A stretch of 47,647 nt of DNA, from the NCBI GenBank assembly GCA_021163225.1, contig JAGGXE010000063.1, positions 1 to 47,647 on the forward strand, read 5' to 3'. Under the pieces are notes generated by a model. That model ran no database searches. It was not told the DNA's origin and saw nothing but the letters and a program-made list of their open reading frames with translations. The position numbers and the translations under genes are program-made. How positions within the stretch are numbered: position 1 is the stretch's first letter; every line of letters starts with the position of its first letter. Below, piece by piece: positions 16,769 to 36,296 of the stretch. This stretch comes from Candidatus Micrarchaeota archaeon (GTDB taxonomy: Archaea > Micrarchaeota > Micrarchaeia > Anstonellales > JAGGXE01).

Positions 16769-17044
16769 ATCTTCTCAATAAGAACGTAACAGATTTAAAC
16801 TTACCTTCTTTTCGCACGGGAGTGCAGACGGGATAGAGTATGGAGAGTTGGAAAAGAGAAAGAAAGGGAATGAACATAAGAAAAAGGATATATGAGAATA
16901 AGAAGATGAGGTTAGGTAGATAGTTTGGTATAAAACCTAATTCGTCACACAGAGTTAATCAGATTTATTCACAATTGCACAGAAGGTTTTGCTTATACCC
17001 ATATATTTATAAAGATTGCTCCAAAAATATAAGTGGTGATTTGC

Positions 17045-17572
17045 ATGCCGACAGTACAAGAAAAAAATCCTGAAGTTAAAGAAATGATTGAGAAGACACC
17101 TGAACTGAAAAAAGCAATGGAAATCTTGAACTCATTATCGCAAGAGGAAAGGAGTTATATTGCAGCGGTAATGAAGGCAAGGACTGACGCAGAGTATATA
17201 ATGAAGTTGCCTTCAAGTGTTAGAAGGGCTTGGCTAGAGGCTCTTCTTGATAAAATACCTCCAGAAGAGATTATTGAGACTATGCCACTGCCACCTGAAA
17301 CAAAATCGAAAATGATGCAGATGTTGGAGAAAAAACGTAGGGGAGGGATCCTTGAGAAGATTCCTAAGAAGCGTGATATACCTAAAGAATGGTCTGAATG
17401 GATTGAACAAAAACTTCCTAAGAAACCTACTAATATAATTAAACTTCCTAAAAAGTTTGAAGGAAAAGAAGGGTCTAAAATGCTTAAACTTCCCGGAGAA
17501 ATCAAGGTAGAAGAAGAGGAGCCCAAAATAATTCTTCTTTCTAAGAAGAAAGGAGAAAAAACTGAAAAATAA
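17045..17572 (+). CDS. K/E-rich hypothetical protein with KLPKK repeats
   Basis: 175-aa ORF in an AT-rich island. The ATG at 17045 lies 5 nt after GGTGA. The C-terminal half has three KLP(K/G) repeats. An oligo-T run follows the stop. I recognise no family. Confidence 0.5.
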   Translation: MPTVQEKNPEVKEMIEKTPELKKAMEILNSLSQEERSYIAAVMKARTDAEYIMKLPSSVRRAWLEALLDKIPPEEIIETMPLPPETKSKMMQMLEKKRRGGILEKIPKKRDIPKEWSEWIEQKLPKKPTNIIKLPKKFEGKEGSKMLKLPGEIKVEEEEPKIILLSKKKGEKTEK

Positions 17573-19695: not shown

Positions 19696-19747
19696 TCCGT
19701 GCTTTTTCTTTGTTGTGCTTTTTTCTTGTTTTTCGAACCTATAACTT
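19696..19747 (+). terminator. Oligo-T terminator region after spt5
   Basis: TGCTTTTTCTTTGTTGTGCTTTTTTCTTGTTTTTCG lies directly after the stop. The spacer is shared with the convergent 1452-aa gene. Confidence 0.4.
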
Positions 19748-22700
19748 TTACTCGCCAGAGGATTCGATCGGACTTACTGGAGATGCAGGAGTGGTACCGC
19801 CGAGATGTATGCTGAAACTGCACTGTACACCGGTCCCCCATTCTGTCGTGTCTCCGAAGTGTTTCCGTTCTGAATACCATCCGCCGCGTGCATAGAAGTT
19901 TCCGCGCAGTCCGAAGATGTTGAGCGTGCCGCCAGCCCCGACGCCTACCAGGAACCAGTTCCGGTTGTTATCCTCATTGATATAGGTAGTGTACCTATCC
20001 TCAACGAACGCCCAAACATTAACCTTTTCATCACGGTATAACGTACTGGCGACTTGGGCTTCTGTTTCTCTGGATGTTCCCACGTTATAAGTATGACTGA
20101 TCATCAAACTTGGATAATAAAGTCCAAGGTTGTACCATCCCAAACTCAACCTCCACATATCAAGTTCGTTGTACATACCCCATCGTTCAAAAGCTATCCC
20201 TGCCTGGGACCAATGCGGAACAGTATCGAACCACAATGCTATTCCTTGATATGTCGGCGAATACCTGAACTGTGTCACCGCTCGGTTTATAAAGAAAGGA
20301 TGATGAACGTTTAACTGTGCAAGGATGAAAGGCATCTTTTCACCGTACCTGTCAGCCATGCCGAGACCCAGACCGCCCGCATCCACGTACAACCCTTTCG
20401 ACAACCTCATCGTACGCAACCATGACAGGTTCACGTAACCTCTTTTTTCAGCAGTCGTAGATGTAACGTAATCTTCGTAGTATGCCCCGACAACCATACC
20501 GTTATCCCTGTCCACCATGAAGGTAACGGCCGCTCTGTTTCTCTCGGAAGTTCCGGTAACACTACGGTAGACCTCTCCTGCCATCCTGCCCGCGCTAGCA
20601 TAACCTTTGATTGCCTGGTACCCTTCCGTTTTATGAAGGTATCCTGCTAAGTACAACGCACGGTCCATCCTCAAACTCCCGCCGGTCAACCATCTATCAA
20701 CTCCATCGTTAGTAAACATGTAGTATCTCATTCTACCGTTCTCCCATCGCACATCGCCGCCGCCACCGTACAAACCGTCAAACCCGGCCGCCTCCACTCT
20801 TACACCTTTATCATCAACAGTATAGTTGAACCCGGCACCCCATTGAGTGCTCAGACCTTCTTTCTCGCCTGCAGGGTATCCTTCTTTAATACCCTTCGTA
20901 TAATCTTCGCCATAAGCACCGTAAACAGACAGATTCCCCATACTACCTGCAACCTGGACAAAGTTGTGAGCAGGCACACGGTTATCAGACGGGTACTGAG
21001 AGATCCATCGTCCGCCCCATAACCTCAACCCGGGTGCTCCGTACCACATATTATACAAAGGAAGCTGGGTATCGAGAGCGAACCGTTCAAACCGCATACC
21101 GCCATAGGACTCTGGGTAATACCTCAACAAACCTATCCCCGCCTGATGCACGGTACCGAACAACAAACCCCGTCCGTAGAACGGATTATACTGAAGGTCC
21201 AACCGTCTCCTCCATCGGTCGTACCCGTAGTATATGGAATACTCCTGAGCACTCATGTTCAACCAATCGAACCATGAATAGAATGTATTATGAACGGTTG
21301 TAGTCATATCCTGGGTAACTGATGTTTGATAAAGATGGGTTTTCAACCATCCTCGCATCAAAGACCATTCCGGATTTCTGGCAAAAAGGTCGGCACCGGC
21401 GTAAGCATTCCTCAAAGTAGTCTGCTCTTCTTCAGTAGTTACAGACCTACCCCTCCATTCTATGTTCCCTTTGTACCAACCTGGTCCGTAATCGGCGACA
21501 AAGCCCAGATTACCGCTCCCTTCGATATCAAGGGTGCGACTGGTTACCTCCCCCTCCTCCTTCACTTCGGTTATTCCGACCTTTAACAAACTTGTAGATG
21601 TTTCGTTGGCGGACAGTGTCGGCTGTATACGAAGCTGTTTCTCTTTAGCCTTTCTTGCAGTATTGTTATAATTCAGTTCAACGGGTCCTGCTTCATCGAA
21701 CCGTAACACGTATCCGCCGTCCTCTTTCTCAACCTTCGGAAAGAACACGATTACTGTAGCATTTTTCGAATATATCGATTCGTTATCCGGTACCGGAACC
21801 TCCCCCGGAACAACCGTTGCAGGTTGCCCGTCGATCAACAGGTTACCTTCCTCATCAACGGTTATTGTGTGATAATAATGGGGTTGAGCAACTTCCTGTT
21901 CCTGTGGGTATTTGATGTAAACAGGCAACCTCTGTACACCCCCCTCAGTTAACTTGTAATCTGCGGGTGATTGCACCTGCGTGACACGTTGGCTCGGATA
22001 GGATACCGACGGCACAGCAGTGATCATGTACACGTATCTGCGTTTGAGGTCCAGAACCAGATAACCGTCGGATGTCGACCTTACATTCTCGCTACCGAAG
22101 TATACGAGTTGTTTGTTTTTGAGTTGCTGTATAAACTCCTGCACCTCTTTAACATTCTTATTCGCAAGCTGATAGGTTATATCGTAAGCGTCGCACAACG
22201 TCTCCAGGGGAGGTCTCGGGTCGATGGAGAAAAGGAGCGGTGCGGAAAGTCCGTAGAACGTCTTCATCATCTTCACAGACTCCGGTGTAAGACCTCCTGA
22301 TGCTAAGATGAACAGGTCGTCCATACCCACCAATCCGTAAACCTTCGTATATTGTCTCAGAAACTCCTCTGATATCTGCAACGCGTTACCCCATTGGCCG
22401 ATAAGATAGTTTACGTTCTCAGCCATTTTTGTAGTTTCGTTCTCTGCATCGCTAAAATCGCAGTTGTCAACCATACTATCTATCAGATTGTAGAAAACGG
22501 ATTTTTCATTCTCCGTCATTTCGCCCTTCCGTACGAAAGAACTTAGGGAATTATCCAGCGCATCATCGAACGATTCGCCCTGAGCCATCCTGTCCGCAAC
22601 ATCGGTAAGCACAGTTGACACAACCTCTATGAGCTTATGTTTACCGTAGACACCCTGATATTTGGTTGCCCAATCGTACCCTGATATCTGGTTTAAGAAG

Positions 22701-24106
22701 TGTTGGTACACTGTTTCGCCGTCCCGATAGTCCGTGCTCTCAGAACTGATAGCCACCGTGGAAAGGTCAACAACATCTTCATAGTTGGATATAGAAGTAT
22801 ATTCGTAACTTGAACCGTAAATGGTTAGACGTATCTCTTCCAAACTTCCGTGCGCATCGGCAATAAGAAAAGGTATGGTGTTAAACAGAAACTCTCTACG
22901 CACAGAAGGGTTAATAATCTCGGTAACGTTTAAAACCCATGGGGATATCACCCATTTATTCTCATCGGGTTCGGTCCTGGCGTTATCGTATTCTTCCATC
23001 CTTCGGTTCTTCAAGTATTCTGTATCTATGAGGATCATCCCATTGTCGCGGTAGGTATACCAGTTATTAAGTCCTCCCTCCTCGGTACCCAAAGGGGTTG
23101 CAGTGTTCAGCAGTTCGGACATCAGTAGAACAGCATTCCCGTGATGATACTTCTCCAACTCGGTTAACTGTTGAAACAGACCTATGTATCCCTTCTCTTC
23201 CTCAAACTTTTCGGAAGCCACACTTTTAAGGTCTTTGTAAGGTAAAAATGTCAGAAGAGCGAGGTAATCCGCTTCAACGAGTGCCCGCTGTTTCGGGGAC
23301 ATCCCTACATCCAGCAGCATTCCGTCGAGTAAACGGACCTGTCCGACGATGCGTCCGCGTTCATCCTCATTAAGTTGCGGGAATAGGGAGTCTACGGTCT
23401 CATCGATGTTGAAAACCATACTGCCCACGGGTTGCGGTGTTATCTCACCAAGTTTTGATCTCTCCTTGGACACCTGTCGACCCGCGGATTCAAAATATTT
23501 GAGTGCATTATCCAGTCCGTTATCCTGAATGAGCTTGAGAACCGCTAACGACCTGTTCTTATACTTTTTGTAAGGTTTAGTCCAATCCTCATCCAACTCG
23601 TTGTTATAAAAGACCGTTAAACCCTGTTTCTGCTCTTCGCTCAGTCGGACACCTTTGTCCTCAAGATACTCAATCCATCGGTCAACAGTCAACCGTCCTT
23701 TGTATCCCTTCTTCTTTTTCCATGCCTGAATATCTTGATTGGTGATAGAAACCTTTTTCTTCAACGATTCCGAACCCAAGGGTACCACCCGTTTGAAATA
23801 TGATACATAATAATTTTTATACCTTTGTCCACCTTCGTCTTGCCCTACTTCACGATACCCGCTCTGCTCTCTCACCCGACCGTTAACACCGGTAGCATTA
23901 GAACTTCCGAGAACGGGTACAGATGTAAGCAAAACGCTCGCAACCAAGATCTTAGAGATAGGTCTAACAACCCTGCACGAAGCACGTTTTAACCACGACT
24001 TATATTTTGTCTTGTACATCGACGCGTCCATCGAAACCATCCTCAAAACATGTTTGCAACAGTTGACCGATCGCAACAGCCGACCGATGAGTTTTGTGGT
24101 TATCAC
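19748..24106 (-). CDS. Giant exported protein (up to 1452 aa), function unknown; C-terminal about 580 aa rich in Gly/Tyr/Trp/Arg (beta-barrel-like)
   Basis: Uninterrupted 4.36-kb ORF with core-like composition. Signal/anchor-like segment KRASCRVVRPISKILVASVLLTSVPVLGSSNA. The probable true start is M26 or M30 (24031 or 24019). I recognise no domain. Confidence 0.85.
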   Translation of the reverse strand: MITTKLIGRLLRSVNCCKHVLRMVSMDASMYKTKYKSWLKRASCRVVRPISKILVASVLLTSVPVLGSSNATGVNGRVREQSGYREVGQDEGGQRYKNYYVSYFKRVVPLGSESLKKKVSITNQDIQAWKKKKGYKGRLTVDRWIEYLEDKGVRLSEEQKQGLTVFYNNELDEDWTKPYKKYKNRSLAVLKLIQDNGLDNALKYFESAGRQVSKERSKLGEITPQPVGSMVFNIDETVDSLFPQLNEDERGRIVGQVRLLDGMLLDVGMSPKQRALVEADYLALLTFLPYKDLKSVASEKFEEEKGYIGLFQQLTELEKYHHGNAVLLMSELLNTATPLGTEEGGLNNWYTYRDNGMILIDTEYLKNRRMEEYDNARTEPDENKWVISPWVLNVTEIINPSVRREFLFNTIPFLIADAHGSLEEIRLTIYGSSYEYTSISNYEDVVDLSTVAISSESTDYRDGETVYQHFLNQISGYDWATKYQGVYGKHKLIEVVSTVLTDVADRMAQGESFDDALDNSLSSFVRKGEMTENEKSVFYNLIDSMVDNCDFSDAENETTKMAENVNYLIGQWGNALQISEEFLRQYTKVYGLVGMDDLFILASGGLTPESVKMMKTFYGLSAPLLFSIDPRPPLETLCDAYDITYQLANKNVKEVQEFIQQLKNKQLVYFGSENVRSTSDGYLVLDLKRRYVYMITAVPSVSYPSQRVTQVQSPADYKLTEGGVQRLPVYIKYPQEQEVAQPHYYHTITVDEEGNLLIDGQPATVVPGEVPVPDNESIYSKNATVIVFFPKVEKEDGGYVLRFDEAGPVELNYNNTARKAKEKQLRIQPTLSANETSTSLLKVGITEVKEEGEVTSRTLDIEGSGNLGFVADYGPGWYKGNIEWRGRSVTTEEEQTTLRNAYAGADLFARNPEWSLMRGWLKTHLYQTSVTQDMTTTVHNTFYSWFDWLNMSAQEYSIYYGYDRWRRRLDLQYNPFYGRGLLFGTVHQAGIGLLRYYPESYGGMRFERFALDTQLPLYNMWYGAPGLRLWGGRWISQYPSDNRVPAHNFVQVAGSMGNLSVYGAYGEDYTKGIKEGYPAGEKEGLSTQWGAGFNYTVDDKGVRVEAAGFDGLYGGGGDVRWENGRMRYYMFTNDGVDRWLTGGSLRMDRALYLAGYLHKTEGYQAIKGYASAGRMAGEVYRSVTGTSERNRAAVTFMVDRDNGMVVGAYYEDYVTSTTAEKRGYVNLSWLRTMRLSKGLYVDAGGLGLGMADRYGEKMPFILAQLNVHHPFFINRAVTQFRYSPTYQGIALWFDTVPHWSQAGIAFERWGMYNELDMWRLSLGWYNLGLYYPSLMISHTYNVGTSRETEAQVASTLYRDEKVNVWAFVEDRYTTYINEDNNRNWFLVGVGAGGTLNIFGLRGNFYARGGWYSERKHFGDTTEWGTGVQCSFSIHLGGTTPASPVSPIESSGE

Positions 24107-24155
24107 ATAATTTATGTGTAATCAAATAAAAAGGTTACTGGTAATCGTGTGTATT

Positions 24156-25733: not shown

Positions 25734-27398
25734 TCATTCCTTAGGCGTATGCTGTTCAACGAACTCTTTTGTGTACTTCTCAAGTATCCGTACCCATCTC
25801 GGTTTACGAACCCTGTACAACGACCGTCTGACTTCCTCCCTTTTATCTTCGGTTCCGCTGCTCTGGACTTTGCGTTTCTTTTTCCACGGTTTATCTATGA
25901 CATATACCCTACGGTAGGCCGCTTTGAACATCTTCCATACGAACGGCAACCATTCCTTATATTCTTCATCGGTGAAGGTTTCTACAAACTCGAACAACTG
26001 TTTTGGCCATAGATCAATGTTCTTCCAATCGATTTTCGGGACTTCTTCGCCCGCCTCCCTCCTATCTCCTGCAACGTCCGACACAACACTTCTAACCAAC
26101 CATTTAAGTTCGTAAAACTTCGTGACCAGGTCAAGAGCCGCCAGGTATCTCCTGTATTCTATCAGGTTTTTACCCAAACCATCCCTTATAAAATCCGAAT
26201 AATTTCTGGGCCAATGATAGGGGTCCATATGTCTCTGTTTCGGTGGTAGGATTTTGTAGAGTTCTACATACAGTTCGATACATCGTTTGAAATATCTTCT
26301 GACCATCAATGCAGCAAACTTTTCAGCATTACCGACGTCACCGACCTCTTTCGTAAGTTTTATCAACCACTTCCTCGCATCACGCAACCCTTCGCGAGTA
26401 CCGTCTTTGAAATACAGTCCTAACAACGGTTGCGAGAATCCCCATCCGTACTCCTGATATTCTAGAAGGATCTTCAATGCAGCAACCTTCATAGGCATAC
26501 CTAACAACGTGTAAGCAACCATCTCTTCCCCGGTCAGATAAGAGTATAACGGATGTTCGCCTTCTATGTATTCTTCTGGTGATTCGTGAAACGCATAGGA
26601 ATTCAGATAGACAAGTCCGTCGATAAGTTCATCCATGAGATAAGTCAGATATTCTTCCGGCGTCCGACCGGATTCTGTAAACTGTTTCCACCGTTTTTTC
26701 ATCCTTCTTAAAGACATCCCGGATTTGTCCGTGATCACAACCTCCCATCCGCGCGTGTCTTCACCTGCTACATTGATATCTATAGGCGGTGCTACAGGCG
26801 GATGTTTCACATTGAAAATCGGGTCGTAACCTACATCCTCTTCGTCGTATTCAGGCAGGATGGTAACGCGTTTAGTCAATCTGTTAACCTTGACACGGTC
26901 AGGGTCGTACAACAGGAAACTGAGCGTCTCGATGTACATAAACTTTCTGGCTACCTCACCCAACTTCTTCTTCAAATTCTCATCATCGCTATGCTCTTTC
27001 AACTCTTCGCGAAGACCGGTCAGCCTATCGATTACATCGTTACGGGTATCGAGAACCCTGTTGTACACAAGGTTGAATGTTAGAGAGACGAGTTTACGTC
27101 TCGACTCCCGCGTTGTCTTAGGGAGTATTTCTGCAAACCTGTCCTCCAGTTGCTCCGCTAACCGTAGCAAAACTTCATCGGGTGCGGGATAATCTTTCAG
27201 CCGCGTCATAAACGCGGAAACGGACCGGTTTATCTCAGCGAGACATCTGACCGCAAGTTCAGGGTTACCGACAATCTTCTGAATCGCAGTAACCCAAGGG
27301 TTATAATCTGTGAGAGGGATCATCAAAGGTCCTTTGCGCTGTTCAGACCCTGTCCTTCCTTTCTTTTCAGCCTTTTTCTTGCTGGCTACCGCGTCCAT
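25734..27398 (-). CDS. 554-aa soluble hypothetical protein (last gene of the four-gene operon)
   Basis: Long ORF with core-like composition. The ATG lies 5 nt after GAGGTGA, which overlaps the stop of the upstream gene (4-nt gap). No signal peptide, TM helix or motif that I recognise. Confidence 0.8.
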   Translation of the reverse strand: MDAVASKKKAEKKGRTGSEQRKGPLMIPLTDYNPWVTAIQKIVGNPELAVRCLAEINRSVSAFMTRLKDYPAPDEVLLRLAEQLEDRFAEILPKTTRESRRKLVSLTFNLVYNRVLDTRNDVIDRLTGLREELKEHSDDENLKKKLGEVARKFMYIETLSFLLYDPDRVKVNRLTKRVTILPEYDEEDVGYDPIFNVKHPPVAPPIDINVAGEDTRGWEVVITDKSGMSLRRMKKRWKQFTESGRTPEEYLTYLMDELIDGLVYLNSYAFHESPEEYIEGEHPLYSYLTGEEMVAYTLLGMPMKVAALKILLEYQEYGWGFSQPLLGLYFKDGTREGLRDARKWLIKLTKEVGDVGNAEKFAALMVRRYFKRCIELYVELYKILPPKQRHMDPYHWPRNYSDFIRDGLGKNLIEYRRYLAALDLVTKFYELKWLVRSVVSDVAGDRREAGEEVPKIDWKNIDLWPKQLFEFVETFTDEEYKEWLPFVWKMFKAAYRRVYVIDKPWKKKRKVQSSGTEDKREEVRRSLYRVRKPRWVRILEKYTKEFVEQHTPKE

Positions 27399-27402
27399 CT
27401 TT

Positions 27403-30288
27403 TCACCTCTTCATCTTTGTCGAATGATAGATAACTTCTCCGCTCACCACGCCTAAAGGTGTAACGTACATATCGTTAGGCAACCCGTAAGCCGAGAGTA
27501 TCTCAGGCCAACTCCTGCCCGGGACACTGATCTTTTCCAAAAGTTCTGGGTCGATCCTATCCATCGCTTCCAAAAGGCTCATACCTTCCGGATTGGTGAT
27601 GTACTGCATCTCAGACATCCTGAGGTTTTCAGGAATATTATCCAGGTCAAAACCCATCCTGCGAATCTCCGACCTTACGGCGTTGATCTCAGGCGACTGA
27701 ATATCGCGCCAGACAACCGACCTGTAGAACCCTATCTCTTTGTTACTGACCTGCGATTCTAACGCTTCCGGAGAAGCTATCTGAACGATTTTCGGATTAA
27801 ACTCTACACCTTTGACTACCTTACCGATATTCTCAGACCATCGGTTAAGGAACTGGTTTACGTCCGCATCTTCGGGCAAAGCCACAATAACTTCTGAAGT
27901 ACCTTTCACATAGAAACTCGAACCCTTCGGAAGTGAGAGTGCCAACGTCTTCCGATTGACTTCAATGACATCATCACCTATATCGTGACCTACGTTGTTG
28001 TAAGCAGTAAACTTCACCACGTCCTTCTCAAGAGGAGCGCTCGCTTTACCGCTGTGATGTCCGGCCGCTTCCATCAAAACACTTTTGACAACTTTACCCT
28101 CAGAAATTCGAGCGACCCTGTAACGTATCTCAATGTGGTACACCTTCTTACCTGCCTTCACTTCTTTCATTATAAAACGCCGGACATTGCCTGATTTTTT
28201 ACCGGTCATATCCACTTCCATGTTCTTAAGTTCTTCGAGCGGTTCAACGTTGAACAGTTTAGGTTTGAAGGTTTCATAATTGGGTGACTCTGCCTCTGCA
28301 AGCACGCCTACCACACCTTTACTCTCAAGTTCTCCTACATTGGACACAGTAATAGTGTAATCCGCACCTGTTATCTTGTCAACCGTTGATTCTGTCATAC
28401 ACCCTTTATTTATTGCAGGTTCATATAAAGTTCTTTCGGCACGTTTCATCAAACTGTTGGCTTCGTTGATCACCTTCTCAACCTCTGTCTTAGGTGCGTT
28501 GGTAACAAGGTATATCTCATCACCGCCTTTACCGCCAACAGAAACAACGTACCCTGCCTTTTTGAGTTGTGCAGCGACGTAGTTAACCATCTTCTTCTCT
28601 TGAGTGAGTGCTGCATCACCGACCTTTTCATCGAACGTGTTGTTTATCATACTCAACCTCCTCTTGTCAAACTGTACACATGTAACCTTGGTGTTTCTAT
28701 CAAATCCTTTGTTTTCAAACGCTTTAACCACGTCTTCGTTCAACTTCTCATTATCTTTGTACCATTTCACTTTTCCGGAAGAAGCCATGTATTCGATGTT
28801 TGTTTCTCGTATCTGGGAATATGTCCTGTACATCATCTTACCTTCACCGTAAACTCCTGCGGTAGTGGAAGCGATGAGAAGACCTTGGAAGAGCACCGGC
28901 AAAAATACCGATTGATCCTGAGCGGAGAGTTCACCGTACATCCTGGCATTCATCTCGGTACCTCCGATGTATACTGACCCCATCCCTGCGATACTCGTTG
29001 CACCGCCGATAAACTTAGTGCCTAAAGCAACCTTCCCTGCCAGTGTACCCGATTTGGATAACAGTTTAAACCCTGTCGCACCTGCACGACCCGCAAAGGA
29101 TGCAGAAAGCAGGAAAGAACCCAAAGCAACCTGTGTTTCCGCAGACGATAGGTCAAAAACCCCCATCTTACCCTGATGAGCCAGTTCTGCCGCAGACTCG
29201 GCCGCGAAATAAGCGTTACCGCTGTAAATGAGGATTGCACCGACAGGTCCGCCGACACCCGTAAGCATCAAACCTGCACCTACAACGATCGCACCGCCTG
29301 CCAACAGGTCGTCCATCCATAACTCGCCTTCCTTCTCCAGATGTATCCCGTTCGGTAACGCATAGAATCCGCGGGGTAACTTGCCCTCCTTCAACAGGTC
29401 GTAAACCGCACTGTAAATCGTGTTATCGGAAACATCCTGAGAAAACGTATACTGCTCAAGCGTCTTGGGAAACACTTCCCTTCCTCTAATCTTTGCACTT
29501 TTATCTACAACACGTTTGACACGTTCCCCTGTGTAAGGGTCGGCTACACGTACGGTTATCCCTTCTTCCTCTGTAGTCACACGAACGAGGAAAGGCACCG
29601 CGTCGATCAATACCCCGTCACCTGCCTTGCGAACACGGATCACAGGTAGAACGATCACTCCCTTTTCATCGAAATGCTCTTTGAACAGATACCTGTTACG
29701 CAGGTCTTTAATATCTTCGTCAGATAACCCAAGGTTATGCAACGCCTTCTCATATCTTTCAGACAGTATCAATGACGAATCGATCATGTTCAACTTCTTC
29801 ATGACAAGTTCTTTTGTAGTGACTCCGTTAATCACAGTGTTATACACGTCGTACCCTTTTGAGAGTTCTGTGGTTGTCTCTCTGTACATCTGATCGGCCG
29901 GTTGTGATTTGGTCTCAACAGCAGAATAATCCGATTCGGCGTGAGTGAACTCCTGTGTTTCATAACTCTGCTCAGGACTCGGAACCTCCGGTACCTCGAG
30001 AAGAACTGGGCGTATGGCATCTAACGTTTTATGGAAGGTGGTAACCAGTTCCCTGTCGCTCATGTTGTTAAGGTTGGACAGTGTTGTTTTGTCAAGGTTA
30101 CCGTACTCTGTAAGAAAAAAGATGATCCTGTTACGTAACTCGGTTCTCCGACGCGCCGCGCGCTCGTCTTCGACGAGCGCGCGTTCCCGTGCTTCTGCGA
30201 GATGTTCCAGTTCTTCAACATCGCTGGTTAGAAGAAGCGCCTTCATGAACACAGATTCCCTCTCCTTAGTTCTCTGGACAACCGCCAT
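27403..30288 (-). CDS. 961-aa membrane protein: N-terminal soluble region, Gly/Ala-rich hydrophobic core, C-terminal region with a GGDEF-like motif
   Basis: The ATG at 30288 (MAVVQRTK) follows GGAAGGTG. The ORF-track start is 30306. Hydrophobic glycine-zipper block at aa 334-487. INNTFDEKVGDAAL...GGKGGDEIYLV at aa 554-601 (numbering from the ORF-track start). Confidence 0.85.
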   Translation of the reverse strand: MAVVQRTKERESVFMKALLLTSDVEELEHLAEARERALVEDERAARRRTELRNRIIFFLTEYGNLDKTTLSNLNNMSDRELVTTFHKTLDAIRPVLLEVPEVPSPEQSYETQEFTHAESDYSAVETKSQPADQMYRETTTELSKGYDVYNTVINGVTTKELVMKKLNMIDSSLILSERYEKALHNLGLSDEDIKDLRNRYLFKEHFDEKGVIVLPVIRVRKAGDGVLIDAVPFLVRVTTEEEGITVRVADPYTGERVKRVVDKSAKIRGREVFPKTLEQYTFSQDVSDNTIYSAVYDLLKEGKLPRGFYALPNGIHLEKEGELWMDDLLAGGAIVVGAGLMLTGVGGPVGAILIYSGNAYFAAESAAELAHQGKMGVFDLSSAETQVALGSFLLSASFAGRAGATGFKLLSKSGTLAGKVALGTKFIGGATSIAGMGSVYIGGTEMNARMYGELSAQDQSVFLPVLFQGLLIASTTAGVYGEGKMMYRTYSQIRETNIEYMASSGKVKWYKDNEKLNEDVVKAFENKGFDRNTKVTCVQFDKRRLSMINNTFDEKVGDAALTQEKKMVNYVAAQLKKAGYVVSVGGKGGDEIYLVTNAPKTEVEKVINEANSLMKRAERTLYEPAINKGCMTESTVDKITGADYTITVSNVGELESKGVVGVLAEAESPNYETFKPKLFNVEPLEELKNMEVDMTGKKSGNVRRFIMKEVKAGKKVYHIEIRYRVARISEGKVVKSVLMEAAGHHSGKASAPLEKDVVKFTAYNNVGHDIGDDVIEVNRKTLALSLPKGSSFYVKGTSEVIVALPEDADVNQFLNRWSENIGKVVKGVEFNPKIVQIASPEALESQVSNKEIGFYRSVVWRDIQSPEINAVRSEIRRMGFDLDNIPENLRMSEMQYITNPEGMSLLEAMDRIDPELLEKISVPGRSWPEILSAYGLPNDMYVTPLGVVSGEVIYHSTKMKR

Positions 30289-30353
30289 CGTTAAAACACC
30301 TTCCAAAACAAAAGTGATGAAACGTTACAGTAACCGAAGGAACTGCGCAACAG

Positions 30354-32966
30354 TTACAGATAATCCTCGCAGATCAGTTCTGACAGGCATCTGATATAAC
30401 AGATTGCTTCGTTGTTCGTCTCGTTCGATTCTACAATCTTACCTGTAGCATCCGCAGTAACGTTGTATATGTAAGTACCGGGTATTTCGCATTTGTAATC
30501 AAAGGTGTCCACCTGATACCAATCCGGCGGGCGTTCTCCACCCGGCCACACAACATCCGTGTATAATGGGTTCAGCCTGCCTATGTTAAACTCTATCTTG
30601 TCACTGTCTATTATAACAGTAGTGACCGATTCGTTCGCTATCGCATCGCCGATGTTCGAGGTGTTGATATGCACGGTAACTGTCTCGCCGAGCGAAACGC
30701 TCACGTTCTCACACGACGGTACAAGGTCGGGTTGTCCGGATCCGGGGGCACACAGATTACAACTGTAGAAACATAACTTCTCATTATTACCTTCGTTCTC
30801 TTCAGAAACGTTATCGGTCGCATCGGCAGTAATCTTTAATATATATAACCCTTCCTCCGTCGGGGTGAAATTGTAAACAGATCCGTTCCATACCTGTAAC
30901 GGCGGGAACGCACCATCCAGTGTTCTGGTTGGAGTTGTGCAGCTGCCGCATGTAGAAGATGCGTTTGTACAATATATTTGGTTCGGCATCAAACTAGAGG
31001 TTAACCAGCCGCGTCCTTCTTCGCACACGAACAATGGATCACAACTCGGTAATGCCGGCAACGTGAAATTTTGGTCATCTACAAGGTTTGAAAAATTGTC
31101 TTTAAACAGCATAACGCGTAACGTGCTTTCGTTCTCAACGCACGTATCACCGTAATGCACAGGTATGTGCAAGAGATAAGAATGATTCACATAACATTCT
31201 CCAAGGTATCCTGGTTCTTCCCAGGGAGGTGTGGGACATTCCGGCCATATGTCGCGGTGCGGTACCGAACGCGCATGACATCTAACAGATATCGGCTTAC
31301 AATTGTTAAGTTCGTTGCTCTCAGTAACATTATTGTTCGCATCTGCGCATATTCGGAAGGTTGCATCCACCCATTCACTTTCATTAGCGTAGCATGTAAC
31401 GTTTATCACAACTCCTGAGTAAAATTCACCTGATGCAAGTGGAGGGACTTCCTGGTCATAGGGAAGCAGAGGCGTGACATCAACCCAAGCATCAGATGGT
31501 GACACACTTTCCAGAGTTATCCGCGTGATCGACCAGTTAGAGGCGTTTCCATTCCCTATGTTTCTCGTATAGTAATGTATCTGAGTCCAATTTCCACCAA
31601 CAGAAGGCGCAGATACATTAGTAATAATGTAATCCGGGAGGTTTTCCACATGAATGGATACATCTACAGTGCCGTTTTCACCATCGCTACAGACAACGCT
31701 TTCGTTCTGATAAGTGACATGTAGAGTAACAGTATCAACCTCACCAAACCCGCTTTTGCAAACATCTGTTGTTATGGTAACTCTGGTCCCCGCTGGAACA
31801 GGTATACGCACGGGTGATGTTGAATATGTAAACCCGTCGCAGTTTGCACCGTCACAGGATGCAGATACCACAGTAACATCCAGTGATGAGGGCGAGACGG
31901 TCACATCCGTTACAACCGCATCCGCACCACCGTTATTGATAACGGTCACATTAATATCATGAATACATCCAGACGTGTCAAAACTCGGATCAGCCACACT
32001 CACACCAGGAACCTGCACGTTGATATGCAGGTCACGAATCGTGATATGAAACTCTTCGGTAGCATGAATATTATGTGACAGATCTTTCTTGAAATACCAG
32101 TTTTCACATGAACTAGAATAGCCGCCTCTGGAAGGGTCATTACAGAACTCAACAACGAAATATCCATCCCCACAATTACCTACTCCCGAACCCATAGCTT
32201 CTCCTGCATACAACGCTCGAAGTTCTGAATACGATGCTTTGATCTTGTATGTTTTTCCATCATCAGAAGAATTAAAAGTAAAATCGTTATTCAACAGGTC
32301 CAGATAGGTATCAATGTTTTCAATTTCACTACCCGTATTCTCATCGATAAGACGAAGGTTGAAAGGAACATACAGAAACAGCCCCAACTTACCTTTTCCA
32401 GTAAACCCTTTGGTAGGGTCATCTGTCTGAGTGAAATACCGTGCCTGTACATCTGAGAAATCAGAAGAGAATCGACCCCCTACATTACATGAATCATGAT
32501 ATATAGACCAAAACCTTACCGGCCCCGGACACGTCCCATCAAAAAAAACATGCGTATCAGCATCGACTACTGCCCGAATTGTAGAACCACCACCGGAAAC
32601 TGCACAATTCTCGGGATCAGGTATATAGTAATAAGGAAAGTTCATAGATTCCATGTTCACGTTAACAGAATCCGGAGTATACTCAACATGAACGGTGCCC
32701 GGACACATCTCGATATTATGCTCTTCAAAACTGCCGTTTAAAACGATCGCATCTGTAGAAATCCGATATCGCAATGGCATTGTAAATTCGTCTGATTGAA
32801 TATATATATCATCACCCACAGCACAACAGGCAGGGTTATTATAATAATAAAGATATACCTCTGGAAGATAGACGCTTGTGCTAACTTCGTAGGAGTCTGA
32901 AGAATTAACAACCGTTACGGCTAGAAAGAAAAGAAAGAATAGATATTCAAACCTTTTCCCTTTCAT
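30354..32966 (-). CDS. 870-aa secreted Cys-rich protein with CARDB-like repeats (putative adhesin / surface protein)
   Basis: Signal peptide MKGKRFEYLFFLFFLAVTVVNSS. About 34 Cys and more than 20 N-x-S/T sequons. At least three modules end in the CARDB-type motif D-A-x-x-x-V-x-E-x-N-E-x-N-N (ADANNNVTESNELNN, ADATDNVSEENEGNN, ADATGKIVESNETNN). GAGGTGG SD 7 nt upstream overlaps the stop of the preceding gene. Confidence 0.9.
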   Translation of the reverse strand: MKGKRFEYLFFLFFLAVTVVNSSDSYEVSTSVYLPEVYLYYYNNPACCAVGDDIYIQSDEFTMPLRYRISTDAIVLNGSFEEHNIEMCPGTVHVEYTPDSVNVNMESMNFPYYYIPDPENCAVSGGGSTIRAVVDADTHVFFDGTCPGPVRFWSIYHDSCNVGGRFSSDFSDVQARYFTQTDDPTKGFTGKGKLGLFLYVPFNLRLIDENTGSEIENIDTYLDLLNNDFTFNSSDDGKTYKIKASYSELRALYAGEAMGSGVGNCGDGYFVVEFCNDPSRGGYSSSCENWYFKKDLSHNIHATEEFHITIRDLHINVQVPGVSVADPSFDTSGCIHDINVTVINNGGADAVVTDVTVSPSSLDVTVVSASCDGANCDGFTYSTSPVRIPVPAGTRVTITTDVCKSGFGEVDTVTLHVTYQNESVVCSDGENGTVDVSIHVENLPDYIITNVSAPSVGGNWTQIHYYTRNIGNGNASNWSITRITLESVSPSDAWVDVTPLLPYDQEVPPLASGEFYSGVVINVTCYANESEWVDATFRICADANNNVTESNELNNCKPISVRCHARSVPHRDIWPECPTPPWEEPGYLGECYVNHSYLLHIPVHYGDTCVENESTLRVMLFKDNFSNLVDDQNFTLPALPSCDPLFVCEEGRGWLTSSLMPNQIYCTNASSTCGSCTTPTRTLDGAFPPLQVWNGSVYNFTPTEEGLYILKITADATDNVSEENEGNNEKLCFYSCNLCAPGSGQPDLVPSCENVSVSLGETVTVHINTSNIGDAIANESVTTVIIDSDKIEFNIGRLNPLYTDVVWPGGERPPDWYQVDTFDYKCEIPGTYIYNVTADATGKIVESNETNNEAICYIRCLSELICEDYL

Positions 32967-32980
32967 TCAAAACCACCTCT

Positions 32981-35900
32981 TCAAGGTAATGGAGTTTCTT
33001 GGGACTTCTTCCTCCTAAAAACTCTACGTGGTGAAACAATGAACTCTAAACTCCAACTCTCTGTGTTGAAATCATAACCGAACCCTAACCCTGCCGTCCA
33101 GTTCGAAACACCCGGAATCGGCAGACCACCGAATATAATCTTTGCCTGTGAAACCTTCTTCGGATCCTTGAAATCATTAGAGTAGAGATGTATTCCAGTT
33201 TCAACTCCTTTCCTGGTTCTCCAGAACATACCCACTCCTCCGCGCACAGATATTTCCTTCTTATCCGGATCGTACCAAATCATCGGCATACCATATCCGC
33301 GGATATACTGCGAACCAACGCCTATTGTGCCACTGAACATAGGCGACCAATTCCCTTTCTCATCTCTGTAGAACTGTATCATCCACCCATCTATGCCAAA
33401 CCATCCAGTCACCTTCTTTACAGCACCTAACGTTACAGAATAGTTGGAACCCATCTTAACTTCCAGGCTTAACTCATCCTCTTTAGATTCTACAACAGGT
33501 ACTTGACGATAGAAGAACATCGCAGAATAGTTCCACCCTCCATGAGATACAACATCTGCACGTACAGAACCGTATGCCCCATGTAACTCATCTTTCATCG
33601 AATCTGCTATCTCTTTAAACTCTTCATCAGTAAGAATGACTACTTTGTTATAGGTAGTAGCACCTCCACCGATAGTAATGAGGAGGGCATTTATTCCTAT
33701 CCCTTCACCCCATTTCTTCAATGACTCCGACGTAGCCATAAGGTCGAAACTGAATTTGCCACCTATCGTTTTCCCAGGCACATATTGGCAAATCATCGAA
33801 GACAACTGGTAACCTATAGTATCTGATAACAAACCTCCCTCGCCGAACAATCGCTCAACCGCTTCGTCTAGAGATATCCTCCCGTCAATCAAGTCATTAA
33901 GTACATCTTGAACTTCACTCCAAGTATGGCCACCCGCGTTCCCACGTTCCCACGCATCTTTAAATGTAGTCCCCTCAAGGTCTACGTTACCTAAGGCGTT
34001 TACAGCGTCTCTAAAACCTTGCTTATCGCGTCTTGCATAGGCAATTGTAAGTTCTTTCATGGCTGCCTTTATATCGTCAGTAACTGTTGGAAGATAGGTA
34101 GCTGTATGAGCTTCGAAAACTTTAGAACTTCCTTCACCGATTGCGGGTTGCACTGGAGGAACAGGCACTTCCATCGTTTGGTATCTTTTGTTCAGGTTTA
34201 TCGTTGCGACCAACGTACGCTTACCGATTCTGCATCTGTCATACCCGTTGTTTGTAGGCGTAGCATACACTTTGTACGTTCCAGGACCGCCTTCGCGATA
34301 CCACTCAGAGAGGTTGAATTTTTGTGTGAAATTCTCATCATCTTCCCCTGTCCAAACACCTGCCACTTCAATAGTCTTTCCATCAGGACTTACAATTTCA
34401 TAGGTAAACCATGTGTTATACCCAGGTACAGTACCACTTTTTTTCTTTTCTTTACTTTTAAGTTCATAATCTACAGCAAACCCAAAGTTAATCTCTGCAT
34501 ATACGTTTTCCACAGGATTACCGTTCTTATCCACGTTTATGTTGTAATCACCTATGTCTACCAAGTCTTCAGTAGATGTGACTATCCCGCTTTTCTTTTC
34601 ATCGACGTACAGCAACATATCCAGTGTAACCCAAGGAACTGTACCCAAGAATTTGAACTCAGGAATATAAACGCACTTAGAACCTGTTTTTTCCAGAGTT
34701 TCTATTATTTTGTCAACCTTCTTCTTGTGCCCTTCGTAACCTTTTTCTTTCGGATCATGACCTTTCATCAAGAACTCACGATATTCATCACGTTTAATCA
34801 GTAAACTGAAATCTCTTCCAATAACACCGATACCCATCTCACCTATTTCGTTAATTCTCTCTTCACTCACTCCCGCCTCTTGCAATTTTCTTTTCACGTC
34901 TTTCCAACCACCCTTCTTCTCTTTAGCCTTCTTTTTAGCTTTCTGTCCGCCGACCGCACCGAGTATTCCAACAAGAATGTACGGATGGGTACAAACATTT
35001 TCTATCTGCTCTTTAACTTCTTTATCAGTCAGGCCTTCTTTAATCATCAAGCTGTTAACCAGCGGCACGTAGTTATATTTATAGTTGCCTTTTTCATCTT
35101 GAACAACTATACCCTCCTCAATTAATGTTTGTAAACGTTCCTCATCTTCTATTGAACAATCATTGTTCATAATAAGCTCCACTAATAGATTCACAGCTTC
35201 CTCATGATGTTCGTCATCTTTATTGTAGAGGTAAGATTCAAAATTGCCGAAGCTCCATTCTTTCTCATCCAACATATCATACAACCTATGTAAAAGAACC
35301 ATCTGCTGTCTGAACGCTTCGACATGAGTCTCAACATCGTAGTTTTTATTTGTCTTATGATGTTCCTCTGCTGCTTTTCTTGCTACATTATACATCTTTT
35401 CTACTGAACCCAACAACCACCAATGTTCTACATCGTGGTCTTTTTTTGCAATGTTATCCATCTTCGTCAAAACTTCAGGACCCAAAGAGAGTAAGGCAAC
35501 CATCTGCACCCTATAATTCTTGCTTTCTGTAAATTTAGATCTAAATTCTACCTCCCTATCTTTGTTAATGAACTCCACAGCCAACCTTGTCTTAATAACA
35601 TTTCCTTCTTCATCTGTTTCTTCGATGAAGACAGGTCTAAAGATATCGTGCCCAAAGAGAAGCTTTGAATCTTTAACAAGCGAATAGAATGCTTGGTCAC
35701 AGTAATATTTTAGATAAAAATCAACTGTCATACCTTGACGCATATCGGCAGCACTTATCCTATGCCCTCCGCTTATGGTTATATTTCCACCGGACAATGG
35801 GGTTAACGGAGATTCCAATTCATGGAGACCGAACTTTTCCCAATATAGTTGTAAACGGAGTGCTTGATACCATGCTTTAAAGGATTCTGTGCGTGGGGAT

Positions 35901-36175
35901 TCTAAACTGTAACGAAGATGGATATCAGTTTTGTGCAGGAACCCTTCACTGAATCCTAATAAAGACGGATTAAATGTAGCATTACCCATTATGAACTGTG
36001 TTATCCAGTAATCTGGATTATTTATCAAATCTTCGAGGTTATAGTACATTGTCTGTTCTGCCTGCTGTTGTTGTTCGGCCTGTTGTTGGACAGGTGTTGG
36101 AACTATCAGAGAAAGATTTCTCTTCTCCTCACCTTTGGTCTCAGCCTCGGCATATTTGAAACCGGTATCAACCAT
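32981..36175 (-). CDS. 1064-aa hypothetical protein (first gene of the four-gene operon), C-terminal beta-rich aromatic/Gly domain
   Basis: The ATG at 36175 (MVDTGFKY) lies 8 nt after GGAGGTG. The ORF-track start is 36214. It has a Q-rich linker (QQQAEQQQQAEQ), a helical middle, an Ig-like-looking segment (GTYKVYATP) and a Y/W/G-rich C-terminal about 170 aa. No N-terminal signal peptide is obvious. Confidence 0.85.
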   Translation of the reverse strand: MVDTGFKYAEAETKGEEKRNLSLIVPTPVQQQAEQQQQAEQTMYYNLEDLINNPDYWITQFIMGNATFNPSLLGFSEGFLHKTDIHLRYSLESPRTESFKAWYQALRLQLYWEKFGLHELESPLTPLSGGNITISGGHRISAADMRQGMTVDFYLKYYCDQAFYSLVKDSKLLFGHDIFRPVFIEETDEEGNVIKTRLAVEFINKDREVEFRSKFTESKNYRVQMVALLSLGPEVLTKMDNIAKKDHDVEHWWLLGSVEKMYNVARKAAEEHHKTNKNYDVETHVEAFRQQMVLLHRLYDMLDEKEWSFGNFESYLYNKDDEHHEEAVNLLVELIMNNDCSIEDEERLQTLIEEGIVVQDEKGNYKYNYVPLVNSLMIKEGLTDKEVKEQIENVCTHPYILVGILGAVGGQKAKKKAKEKKGGWKDVKRKLQEAGVSEERINEIGEMGIGVIGRDFSLLIKRDEYREFLMKGHDPKEKGYEGHKKKVDKIIETLEKTGSKCVYIPEFKFLGTVPWVTLDMLLYVDEKKSGIVTSTEDLVDIGDYNINVDKNGNPVENVYAEINFGFAVDYELKSKEKKKSGTVPGYNTWFTYEIVSPDGKTIEVAGVWTGEDDENFTQKFNLSEWYREGGPGTYKVYATPTNNGYDRCRIGKRTLVATINLNKRYQTMEVPVPPVQPAIGEGSSKVFEAHTATYLPTVTDDIKAAMKELTIAYARRDKQGFRDAVNALGNVDLEGTTFKDAWERGNAGGHTWSEVQDVLNDLIDGRISLDEAVERLFGEGGLLSDTIGYQLSSMICQYVPGKTIGGKFSFDLMATSESLKKWGEGIGINALLITIGGGATTYNKVVILTDEEFKEIADSMKDELHGAYGSVRADVVSHGGWNYSAMFFYRQVPVVESKEDELSLEVKMGSNYSVTLGAVKKVTGWFGIDGWMIQFYRDEKGNWSPMFSGTIGVGSQYIRGYGMPMIWYDPDKKEISVRGGVGMFWRTRKGVETGIHLYSNDFKDPKKVSQAKIIFGGLPIPGVSNWTAGLGFGYDFNTESWSLEFIVSPRRVFRRKKSQETPLP

Positions 36176-36296
36176 TTTGAGTACACCTCCTTTTTTTAAC
36201 AAACATTCCTCCACATTTCCTCAACAAACGTTTATATAAAAACATATTCATTTTAAAAAGATACCGTTTTAAACAAAATGGTCGATTAACCTATCC
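36176..36296. promoter_or_regulatory. Divergent promoter region (four-gene operon / gltX)
   Basis: AT-rich spacer with TTTATATAAAAA (about 36230-36241) and TTTTAAAAAG / GTTTTAAAC boxes. The latter lies about 25 nt upstream of the gltX ATG. Confidence 0.35.

Follow-up and report, generated by a model that had tools for sequence, protein, structure and literature searches.

The locus described here raises the question of whether an archaeon encodes an integral beta-barrel membrane protein. Such proteins are considered a defining feature of the outer membranes of bacteria and of the organelle membranes derived from them. We know of no archaeal integral beta-barrel with a known biogenesis route and, to our knowledge, Archaea lack the Omp85/BamA (BAM) insertase. 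A sequence-only reading of the window (the whole 47,647-nucleotide stretch of DNA that was analysed) had singled out one very long protein, whose C-terminal region was compared with bacterial outer-membrane protein (OMP) barrels; it had proposed either a porin-like membrane barrel or, instead, a soluble beta-solenoid or beta-sandwich. In the following, we summarize the evidence on the gene, on the architecture of its product and its family, and on the nature of the C-terminal region.

The gene is genuine, evolves under purifying selection and is one of very few members of an orphan family. In comparison with its syntenic orthologue in a second MAG (locus L001, 96% identity), around which the gene order is identical, dN/dS is 0.27 over 4.3 kb. 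Contigs of four independent metagenomes differ from the C-terminal part of the gene (19700-21600) by substitutions only, with no indels, and metagenome depth on the gene reaches ~70x, in a hydrothermal sample (run X6). Distant homologues with the same architecture are present in two other samples. The protein is without family assignment and has almost no homologues, as would be expected of a non-functional sequence, that is, an ORF arisen by chance, a pseudogene or an artefact of assembly. Nevertheless, the maintenance of a 4.3-kb open frame in a second MAG, the dN/dS value, the conserved synteny, the intact copies in several metagenomes and the distant homologues effectively refute this explanation, to which we assign a negligible probability. 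The host of the gene, which comes from hydrothermal or marine sediments, is a divergent DPANN archaeon resembling Micrarchaeota. The window contains the archaeal markers split RpoB, RpoA'/A'', Spt5 and SecE, which support the original assignment of the protein to Archaea, and the RpoA' protein is 57-63% identical to that of cultivated Micrarchaeota.

The protein had initially been described as 1452 aa long, which corresponds to the mechanical ORF that starts at a GTG codon (Table 1). However, a 1-nt indel relative to the orthologous locus breaks the frame between this GTG and the ATG at 24031, and a GAGG is found 9 nt 5' of the ATG. We therefore place the protein start at this ATG, which yields 1427 aa, the same length as in the NCBI product call. 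The neighbours of the gene are housekeeping genes (FtsZ, SecE, Spt5), and an expression search found no RNA run containing it.

Table 1. Features of the gene and its product, in positions of the window. The 5' leader and the three elements within it are sequence readings only.
Feature	Position	Strand	Description
Mechanical ORF	19748..24106	-	1452 aa from GTG to stop; first-stage reading
Most likely CDS	19751..24031	-	1427 aa; ATG 24031-24029, stop 19748-19750
5' leader with promoter-like elements	24032..24132	-	
TATA-like element	24132-24124	-	TTTTTATTT
17-nt direct repeat in 5' leader	24056-24088	-	
SD-like GAGG	24044-24041	-	
Predicted signal peptide	23894..24031	-	Lys/Arg-rich n-region, then h-region ISKILVASVLLTSVPVL; lone hydrophobic window
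N-terminal part	21530..23893	-	~790 aa; acidic, pI 4.9; helical periodicity; best-conserved family motifs
Best-conserved block	22037..22264	-	aa 590-665 of 1427; in all three subfamilies; invariant columns of alignment A1
Gly/Tyr/Trp-rich, Lys-poor beta-type C-region	19799..21529	-	aa 835-1411 of 1427 (860-1436 of 1452)
Conserved motif of the C-region	21131..21211	-	R.R.DL..NP....(L/I)(L/F)(F/G)........G.G; common to P0004 and P0005; invariant columns R941 R943 D945 L946 N949 P950 G965 G967
Last three predicted amphipathic strands	19802..19957	-	WFLVGVGAGGTL / NIFGLRGNFYARGGWY / GVQCSFSIHL
Hypervariable loop before last strand	19832..19894	-	aa 1380-1400
Pro/Ser/Thr-rich C-terminal tail	19751..19798	-	16 aa after last strand, GTTPASPVSPIESSGE

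The protein has a mature mass of ~157 kDa, a pI of 5.25, 3 Cys and 12 N-glycosylation sequons (0.87 per 100 aa). A lone hydrophobic segment, ISKILVASVLLTSVPVLG, is located near the N-terminus and accounts for the only 19-aa window with a Kyte-Doolittle value above 1.4; no TM helix is present elsewhere. This segment follows a basic n-region, and the alignment with the homologue P0004 revealed a signal-peptide motif common to both proteins, ..LTS(S)VPV(L/M)GS... These features support export via a predicted Sec-type signal peptide, in agreement with the signal- or anchor-like N-terminus noted earlier, and cleavage would be possible between VLG and SS or between SNA and TG. No PGF-CTERM, lipobox or other recognisable anchor was found in the mature protein. 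The N-terminal half shows helical (100 degree) hydrophobic periodicity, with z values of 2.1-2.6 in the window protein and 3.8-4.1 in P0004, whereas the corresponding sign is negative in the C-terminal half of both proteins, as expected of beta structure for this ~580-aa half. The product is an exported envelope protein of two-part architecture, the halves of which differ sharply in composition. The best-conserved block, which follows the pattern K.FYG...P ... FG..N...T.DGY.VL....R, also contains the best HMMER stretches.

At 50% identity, the family falls into three clusters in a set of 1.84 billion representatives that stand for ~15 billion proteins, and no other Micrarchaeota genome contains a member. 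P0004 shares 22-23% identity with the window protein over ~1000 aligned residues and has the same layout; the gene neighbourhoods of the two loci have nothing in common. Word-index homologue searches with the whole protein and with alignments A1 and A2 recovered nothing beyond the query or the near-identical orthologue. Scans of genome, metagenome and viral contigs with the family alignments gave no confirmed relative among the matches listed, and the peptide patterns were unspecific.

The C-terminal region was originally delimited at 19799-21529, which matches aa 860-1436 of the 1452-aa ORF exactly, and all six peptides quoted from it are present (at aa 1001, 1027, 1111, 1223, 1318 and 1383 of that ORF). 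We compared its composition with the N-terminal part of the protein and with the other 26 ORFs of the window (12,199 residues). The region contains 13.0% Gly (6.7% in the N-terminal part and 6.7% in the other ORFs), 8.3% Tyr (6.1% and 4.0%) and 4.0% Trp (1.0% and 0.9%), but only 2.3% Lys (6.6% and 7.0%). Gly, Tyr, Trp and Arg together make up 32.8% of its residues, compared with 18.4% in the N-terminal part (Fisher p = 1e-9) and 17.9% in the other ORFs (p = 7e-17). The joint fraction of Gly, Tyr and Trp is 0.23-0.28 in each 300-aa window of the region, whereas the other ORFs reach at most 0.22. Of the four residues in which the sequence-only reading had considered the region rich, Gly, Tyr and Trp are enriched, but Arg is not (7.5% against a window background of 6.3%, p = 0.26); the real Arg-related signal is a high Arg/Lys ratio.

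The resemblance to OMP barrels is borne out at the level of composition. The Gly, Tyr and Trp contents are within the limits set by eight E. coli OMP barrels, which are similarly Cys-poor, and the composition score of 0.058 compares with 0.024-0.094 in seven of these eight. Although this log-odds score separates most OMPs from most soluble controls, composition alone does not establish a membrane barrel, because the soluble RhsA beta-cocoon of E. coli (0.045) scores in the same range as OMP barrels and one 200-aa window of an unrelated 720-aa protein of locus L002 scores equally high. The RhsA result thus supports a non-membrane domain. It also brings in a more specific option, namely that the region forms a closed, soluble beta-shell resembling the "cocoon" of Rhs and Tc toxins, or a different kind of secreted effector module directed at a host. 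Among the soluble controls, only the RhsA core shares the signature (Arg-rich, Lys-poor, Tyr/Trp/Gly-rich), it likewise lacks a dyad excess, and DPANN archaea depend on host contact. A cocoon is nonetheless very unlikely. Neither an RHS/YD repeat (PF05593) match in Pfam at E <= 10 nor internal repeats of the Kelch, propeller or YD type were found in the region (best self-alignment 60, shuffle maximum 59), no toxin domain follows, since the protein ends 16 aa past the last strand, and the gene lies among FtsZ, SecE and Spt5 rather than in a polymorphic-toxin locus.

The alternation of hydrophobic and polar stretches, which had been reported for the window protein, does not exceed shuffled sequences there but clearly does so in its homologue. 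Against composition-preserving shuffles, the period-2 power of the C-region gave z values of -0.5 (Wimley-White) and +1.8 (Kyte-Doolittle), with controls ranging from -1.0 to 5.4 for OMPs and from -2.0 to 1.8 for soluble proteins. This result favours a non-membrane domain and speaks against a barrel. On the same two scales, P0004 reaches 1.9 and 4.0 overall and 2.7 and 5.5 in its last 312 aa. In addition, the composition-free pair-correlation score of its C-terminal part (0.067) is OMP-like and exceeds all 14 soluble controls. The window protein has 14 strands with a clean hydrophobic face, which at 2.4 per 100 aa is inside the OMP range of 1.6-4.7, as a barrel would have it; however, this count equals the shuffle expectation (mean 15.1) and therefore does not discriminate.

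Similar differences between the two proteins were observed at the C-terminus. P0004 ends in ...GVQGTFGW, which resembles the OMP beta-signal, in which the final amphipathic strand closes with an aromatic residue. In its final stretch, ...NIWIGVQGTFGW, hydrophobic residues occupy positions -1, -3, -7, -9, -11 and -13, with Gly at -5 and a terminal Trp. No such signal is found at the end of the window protein, which reads ...GVQCSFSIHL followed by GGTTPASPVSPIESSGE. This hydrophilic 16-aa tail has neither a hydrophobic anchor nor a terminal aromatic residue, is conserved in the orthologue and is absent in P0004. As judged by direct sequence reading, the last three predicted strands of the window protein have one clean hydrophobic face each and align to the terminal hairpins of P0004; low-confidence AlphaFold2 (AF2) secondary structure likewise contains long terminal strands. 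Judged by eye, ~24 hairpin strands make up the last 350 aa in each of the two proteins, at ~15 aa per strand compared with ~21 aa in E. coli OMPs, and the loops appear short on both sides. The loop preceding the last strand is hypervariable. The orthologue differs from the window protein at 61 amino acids, 9 of which are in this loop (clustering P = 3e-7); its pN/pS is 1.33, compared with 0.18 elsewhere in the C-region, and its variant block is also present in metagenome contigs. The clustering and the elevated pN/pS argue for surface exposure.

Some of these features support the alternative that the C-region is a true integral transmembrane beta-barrel, located in an outer lipid envelope of this DPANN lineage or inserted into the membrane of a host cell as a pore or anchor. 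Such a barrel would have ~24 or more strands, the first ~225 aa of the region would form a plug or extra strands, and the N-terminal half would serve as a periplasm-side tether or passenger. The OMP-like composition, the statistics and Trp-ended strand of P0004, the same pattern in the last strands of the window protein, a hypervariable long loop at the place expected of an extracellular loop, and the lack of internal repeats and of any other anchor are consistent with this model. The tail of the window protein and its shuffle-level dyad periodicity and hydrophobic-face counts are not.

Sequence and profile searches yielded no significant match in Pfam, NCBIfam, PHROGs or PDB. No OMP family was retrieved from Pfam at E <= 10 with the C-region, its halves or P0004, nor from NCBIfam or the PDB searches, which argues against a barrel. 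The sequence-only reading had taken confident homology to a soluble S-layer or adhesin domain to be evidence against a membrane protein; the searches of these family and structure libraries found no such homology. AF2 models based on three-sequence alignments were unusable, with pLDDT values of 26.9 (C-region of the window protein, 638 aa) and 29.5 (last 358 aa of P0004), and provided neither a barrel nor a soluble fold, so that they lend support to neither reading. A comparison of the C-region by hhalign with single E. coli sequences (8 OMP barrels and 10 soluble proteins) was uninformative, because OMP-OMP scores were no higher than OMP-soluble scores. No Omp85/POTRA gene was found within the 47.6-kb window.

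Several known systems share parts of this architecture. BAM-dependent outer-membrane barrels of the LptD, FimD/PapC and FhuA size class also combine a Sec signal with the absence of TM helices and have strands with one hydrophobic face, and P0004 further resembles them in its terminal strand and period-2 statistics. The family differs from them in lacking any sequence or profile match and in its host, which belongs to a domain without Omp85/BamA, and the window protein also differs in its C-terminal tail and dyad periodicity. Deinococcus SlpA/OmpM-type tethers consist of an N-terminal helical stalk and a very large C-terminal barrel, and they sit in a genuine bacterial outer membrane. The window protein appears analogous in module order (signal peptide, long helical N-terminal part, large C-terminal beta region), but contains no SLH domain and shows no detectable homology. 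Type V autotransporters such as Ag43 similarly have a "passenger" at the N-terminus and a beta domain at the C-terminus, and the Ag43 barrel is comparably Arg-rich and Lys-poor. In the window protein, however, the size of the beta region is 2-fold that of a 12-strand autotransporter barrel, the "passenger" is helical in periodicity rather than a beta-helix, and Pfam gave no PF03797 match at E <= 10.

Among archaeal S-layer proteins, SLP_Mh of Micrarchaeum (PF05123) and the SlaA protein of Sulfolobales (~1,424 aa) are similar in size, acidic pI, signal peptide and few Cys, and SlaA, like the window protein, has no TM anchor. The protein could accordingly be the main lattice-forming or a major S-layer-associated protein, with a role like that of SlaA or SLP_Mh and an unrelated sequence. 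Its mature mass of 157 kDa, pI, signal peptide, 3 Cys and 12 sequons fit general S-layer criteria (10.1101/2021.04.28.441871). We consider this role unlikely, as neither PF05123, TIGR01567 nor any other S-layer model in Pfam and NCBIfam matched, about half of the protein shows helical periodicity, and the sequon density is low. Furthermore, the family is limited to three sequence clusters, whereas an S-layer gene is reported to be near-universal in the Micrarchaeota phylum (10.1101/2021.04.28.441871).

The envelope also bears on the choice between a membrane barrel and a non-membrane domain. The presence of a second membrane in cells of the ARMAN/Micrarchaeota type is disputed. Historically, these cells have been described with two envelope layers (PMC4243693), which would accommodate a barrel, but both Ca. 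Micrarchaeum harzensis (10.1101/2021.04.28.441871) and ARM-1 (PMC11329633) have an S-layer over a single membrane. The envelope of cultivated Micrarchaeota may not apply to this host, because the RpoA' proteins are only 57-63% identical. A non-integral beta domain is somewhat favoured, since cultivated Micrarchaeota have an S-layer rather than an outer membrane and Archaea, as far as we know, have no Omp85/BAM machinery. We thus favour a non-membrane envelope domain for the C-terminal beta region, with a probability of roughly 0.45, and consider it somewhat more likely that it is not an integral lipid-embedded barrel than that it is. Against this preferred reading, an all-beta domain of such length (350-580 aa) that lacks repeats, has long strands and tight turns, and shows one hydrophobic face per strand is seen more typically in membrane barrels than in soluble proteins; the latter, at this size, usually consist of repeats or domain arrays, neither of which was detected in the C-region. 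The OMP-like C-terminal part of P0004, with its aromatic-ended strand, and the absence of a TM helix, PGF-CTERM or lipobox from the mature protein also stand against it.

For a non-membrane envelope domain, we propose that after Sec export and cleavage of the signal peptide, the C-terminal half would fold into a large antiparallel beta-meander, which may act as an attachment or assembly module that holds the protein at the cell surface. The S-layer or pseudoperiplasm could serve as the docking site of this domain, on the surface or inside; alternatively, its aromatic residues could contact lipid or glycan headgroups. One or more of its loops would be exposed to diversifying selection. The specific function would then be carried by the helical N-terminal half.

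In either case, this is an archaeal family of exported proteins that evolves under purifying selection and has an OMP-like composition, and one of its members, P0004, is OMP-like also in strand periodicity and C-terminal signature. It therefore offers a concrete, expressible protein for testing the existence of archaeal barrels. That it represents the first archaeal Omp85-independent integral transmembrane beta-barrel, with ~24 or more strands on an exported 157-kDa protein, is possible, though doubtful; if true, it would imply that a hydrothermal lineage resembling Micrarchaeota has an outer envelope of lipid, or that a symbiont makes a pore or anchor in the membrane of its host. If the domain is soluble, the protein would be more ordinary, one more lineage-specific surface protein of DPANN archaea, but would still mark a hypervariable surface loop that is probably exposed to hosts or viruses.

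The Gly/Tyr/Trp-rich C-terminal region (C-region) was found in a long minus-strand ORF, exactly where the sequence-only reading had placed it, and all six peptides quoted in that reading were recovered from this ORF. The gene product is shorter than was assumed: the first 25 codons are non-coding, since in the orthologous locus a 1-nt indel, located after the GTG but ahead of the ATG at 24031, disrupts the frame, an SD-like GAGG lies 9 nt upstream of this ATG, and the same start is used in the NCBI call. Residue numbers below refer to the resulting 1427-aa protein unless stated. Its N-terminus is signal/anchor-like as proposed, with ISKILVASVLLTSVPVLG, which follows a Lys/Arg-rich stretch, being the only strongly hydrophobic 19-residue window of the protein. 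The T-rich (plus strand) repeat between Spt5 and the target gene probably marks a shared terminator region.

Coordinates of the target gene, its surroundings and features of loci encoding distant homologues
Feature	Sequence	Position	Strand	Remarks
GTG-to-stop ORF	window	19748-24106	minus	1452 aa; contains the C-region
C-region	window	19799-21529	minus	residues 860-1436 of the 1452-aa ORF
Corrected start ATG	window	24031	minus	
SD-like GAGG	window	24044-24041	minus	
TATA-like TTTTTATTT	window	24132-24124	minus	upstream of the target gene
5' leader	window	24032-24106	minus	25 codons of the 1452-aa ORF
17-nt direct repeat	window	24056-24088		within the 5' leader
16-nt tandem repeat (GTGCTTTTTCCTTGTT x2)	window	19699-19730		in the 52-nt convergent gap Spt5/target gene
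Segment spanned by metagenome contigs	window	19700-21600		C-terminal part of the gene
Hypervariable patch	window	19832-19894	minus	pS 0.19 vs 0.08
179-aa ORF	window	17033-17572	plus	18% Lys; recurring LPKK/IPKK-like motifs; between eIF-2B-like gene and FtsZ; overlapped by a long antisense ORF
967-aa protein	window	27403-30306	minus	GGDEF/Palm-like stretches at aa 524-626 and 762-830
Large-protein cluster	window	30354-32966	minus	
Large-protein cluster	window	32981-36214	minus	
Large-protein cluster	window	25734-27398	minus	
Large-protein cluster	window	38115-40568	plus	
411-aa protein beside P0004	L002	8578-9813		signal peptide; weak CarboxypepD_reg match; C-terminal TM segment; Lys/Ser/Thr-rich tail
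763-aa protein beside P0004	L002	14175-16466		lipobox-like LSLGC
Fold-back (inverted) assembly artefact	L004	6221-6614		end of JGI contig
Continuation of P0005	L004	6221-6583	minus	43% identical to P0004

A 96%-identical orthologue is present in a second MAG (GCA_053938465.1, contig JBMXPS010000003.1) with identical synteny, in which an HhH-GPD glycosylase, DUF424 and the target gene are followed by convergent Spt5, SecE and FtsZ. The dN/dS ratio between the two is 0.27, both overall and in the C-region. Contigs of four metagenome runs, one at ~70x depth, span the C-terminal part of the gene and differ by substitutions only; according to their labels, the runs containing the gene are metagenomes of hydrothermal-vent, marine or marine-sediment origin. 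The archaeal host was confirmed by split RpoB, RpoA'/A'', Spt5, FtsZ and further archaeal markers encoded in the window. RpoA' is closest to Candidatus Micrarchaeota MAGs (57-63% identity, compared with ≤55% for Thermococcus and others), which identifies the host as a divergent Micrarchaeota-like DPANN archaeon.

Gly, Tyr and Trp make up 13.0, 8.3 and 4.0% of the C-region, compared with 6.7, 6.1 and 1.0% of the upstream remainder of the protein (N-part) and 6.7, 4.0 and 0.9% of the other 26 window ORFs (12,199 residues); the corresponding values for Lys are 2.3, 6.6 and 7.0%. Together with Arg, the three residues reach 32.8% (N-part, 18.4%, Fisher p = 1e-9; other ORFs, 17.9%, p = 7e-17), and the G+Y+W fraction of every 300-aa window of the C-region exceeds the maximum in any other window ORF. 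The claimed richness thus holds for Gly, Tyr, Trp and the four-residue sum, but not for Arg alone (p = 0.26 against background). This composition is real and non-random. Helical periodicity is positive in the N-part (z = 2.1-2.6) and negative in the C-region, which gives the protein a helix-type N-terminal and a beta-type C-terminal half. The protein has no internal repeats.

No part of the protein was matched beyond noise in Pfam (to E = 10), NCBIfam, PHROGs or the PDB. An exhaustive HMMER search with residues 253-1452 of the longer ORF against 1.84 billion cluster representatives returned three proteins only: the orthologue and the distant homologues P0004 (1361 aa, E = 1.2e-9) and P0005 (973 aa, E = 4.4e-6). 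Over an alignment of ~1000 residues, P0004 is 22-23% identical to the window protein. It shows the same layout, with a signal peptide that carries the shared ..LTSSVPVMGS.. motif, a helically periodic N-part and a C-part rich in Gly, Tyr, Trp and Arg. Conserved family motifs include K.FYG...P and FG..N...T.DGY.VL, as well as R.DL..NP...LLFG....G.G within the C-region. P0005 is shortened by an assembly artefact on its contig, L004, where the real continuation was identified. The P0004 contig, L002, is archaeal (eIF-5A, S24e, S27e and Kae1). The immediate neighbours of P0004 are other signal-peptide proteins, none of them shared with the window; these secreted or anchored proteins suggest that envelope genes are clustered there.

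The membrane-barrel idea was examined using E. coli K-12 controls, namely eight outer-membrane beta-barrel proteins (OMPs) and soluble beta-rich and periplasmic proteins. The OMP-like composition proposed earlier is reproduced in that Gly, Tyr and Trp lie inside the OMP range, and the leave-one-out composition log-odds of the C-region are 0.058 bits/residue (0.024-0.094 in seven of the eight barrels). However, this test is not specific, because the soluble RhsA cocoon (0.045) and a 200-aa window of an unrelated L002 protein (up to 0.098) score similarly. The density of hydrophobic-face strands, 2.4 per 100 aa, lies inside the OMP range (1.6-4.7) but matches the shuffle expectation. Hydrophobic/polar alternation is weaker than claimed, with period-2 z-scores against shuffles of -0.5 (Wimley-White) and +1.8 (Kyte-Doolittle); the controls span -1.0 to 5.4 (eight barrels) and -2.0 to 1.8 (nine soluble beta-rich or periplasmic proteins). 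The composition-free pair correlation is -0.006 for the window protein, in the overlap zone, and 0.067 for the last 358 aa of P0004, above all 14 soluble controls. P0004 is also strongly dyad-periodic (z up to 5.5), and its C-terminus, ...RGVNIWIGVQGTFGW, forms an amphipathic strand with an aromatic last residue, resembling the bacterial beta-signal. In the window protein, a 16-aa Pro/Ser/Thr tail comes after the equivalent strand, GVQCSFSIHL. Read by eye, the last 350 residues of both proteins contain ~24 hairpin strands, most with one clean hydrophobic face, joined by short Gly/Asn/Asp turns. Two AlphaFold2 runs gave unusably low pLDDT values of 26.9 and 29.5; their low-confidence secondary structure consists mostly of beta-hairpins, with some helices where the C-region begins.

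Of the 61 amino-acid positions that differ from the orthologue, nine lie in residues 1380-1400, which form the long loop preceding the last strand (P = 3e-7). In this loop pN/pS is 1.33, compared with 0.18 elsewhere in the C-region. The variant block recurs in independent metagenome contigs. This pattern fits a loop exposed to hosts or viruses, which would be extracellular in an OMP-type topology and equally compatible with any surface protein. Synonymous and non-synonymous divergence are both raised in this patch, a pattern that recombination between the two haplotypes could also explain, in place of diversifying selection alone.

The GGDEF/Palm-like matches of the 967-aa protein are weak (E about 1e-4 to 1e-5, under curated cut-offs), and PADLOC gave no match; a nucleotide-cyclase-like palm protein would be unusual for a DPANN archaeon. 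In the large-protein cluster, the 870-aa protein combines a signal-like N-terminus with three CARDB domains, indicating another surface protein, and the 1077-, 554- and 817-aa proteins have no family match. The Lys-rich 179-aa ORF was likewise assigned to no family.

Omp85, the barrel insertase, is not known from archaea. Two membranes were formerly ascribed to ARMAN/Micrarchaeota (PMC4243693). In Ca. Micrarchaeum harzensis and ARM-1, both cultivated, a proteinaceous S-layer covers a single membrane, and their PF05123-type S-layer gene reportedly occurs in almost all Micrarchaeota genomes (10.1101/2021.04.28.441871; PMC11329633). The window protein is unrelated to this S-layer protein.

Taken together, the window protein is a genuine orphan protein of the envelope that is exported and has a two-part architecture; its C-terminal half is beta-type and OMP-like in composition. 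Given the missing insertase, the S-layers of cultivated relatives and the weak dyad statistics of the window protein, we favor, with a probability of roughly 0.45, a non-membrane beta domain for envelope association. A genuine transmembrane barrel is a less likely reading, which is supported by the non-repetitive long-strand meander, the OMP-like statistics and terminal aromatic residue of P0004, and the absence of another anchor in the window protein. The remaining probability is shared among a true S-layer protein, a shell of the Rhs type and other possibilities. The protein would lend itself well to alignment-free structure prediction and to a refolding/conductance experiment.
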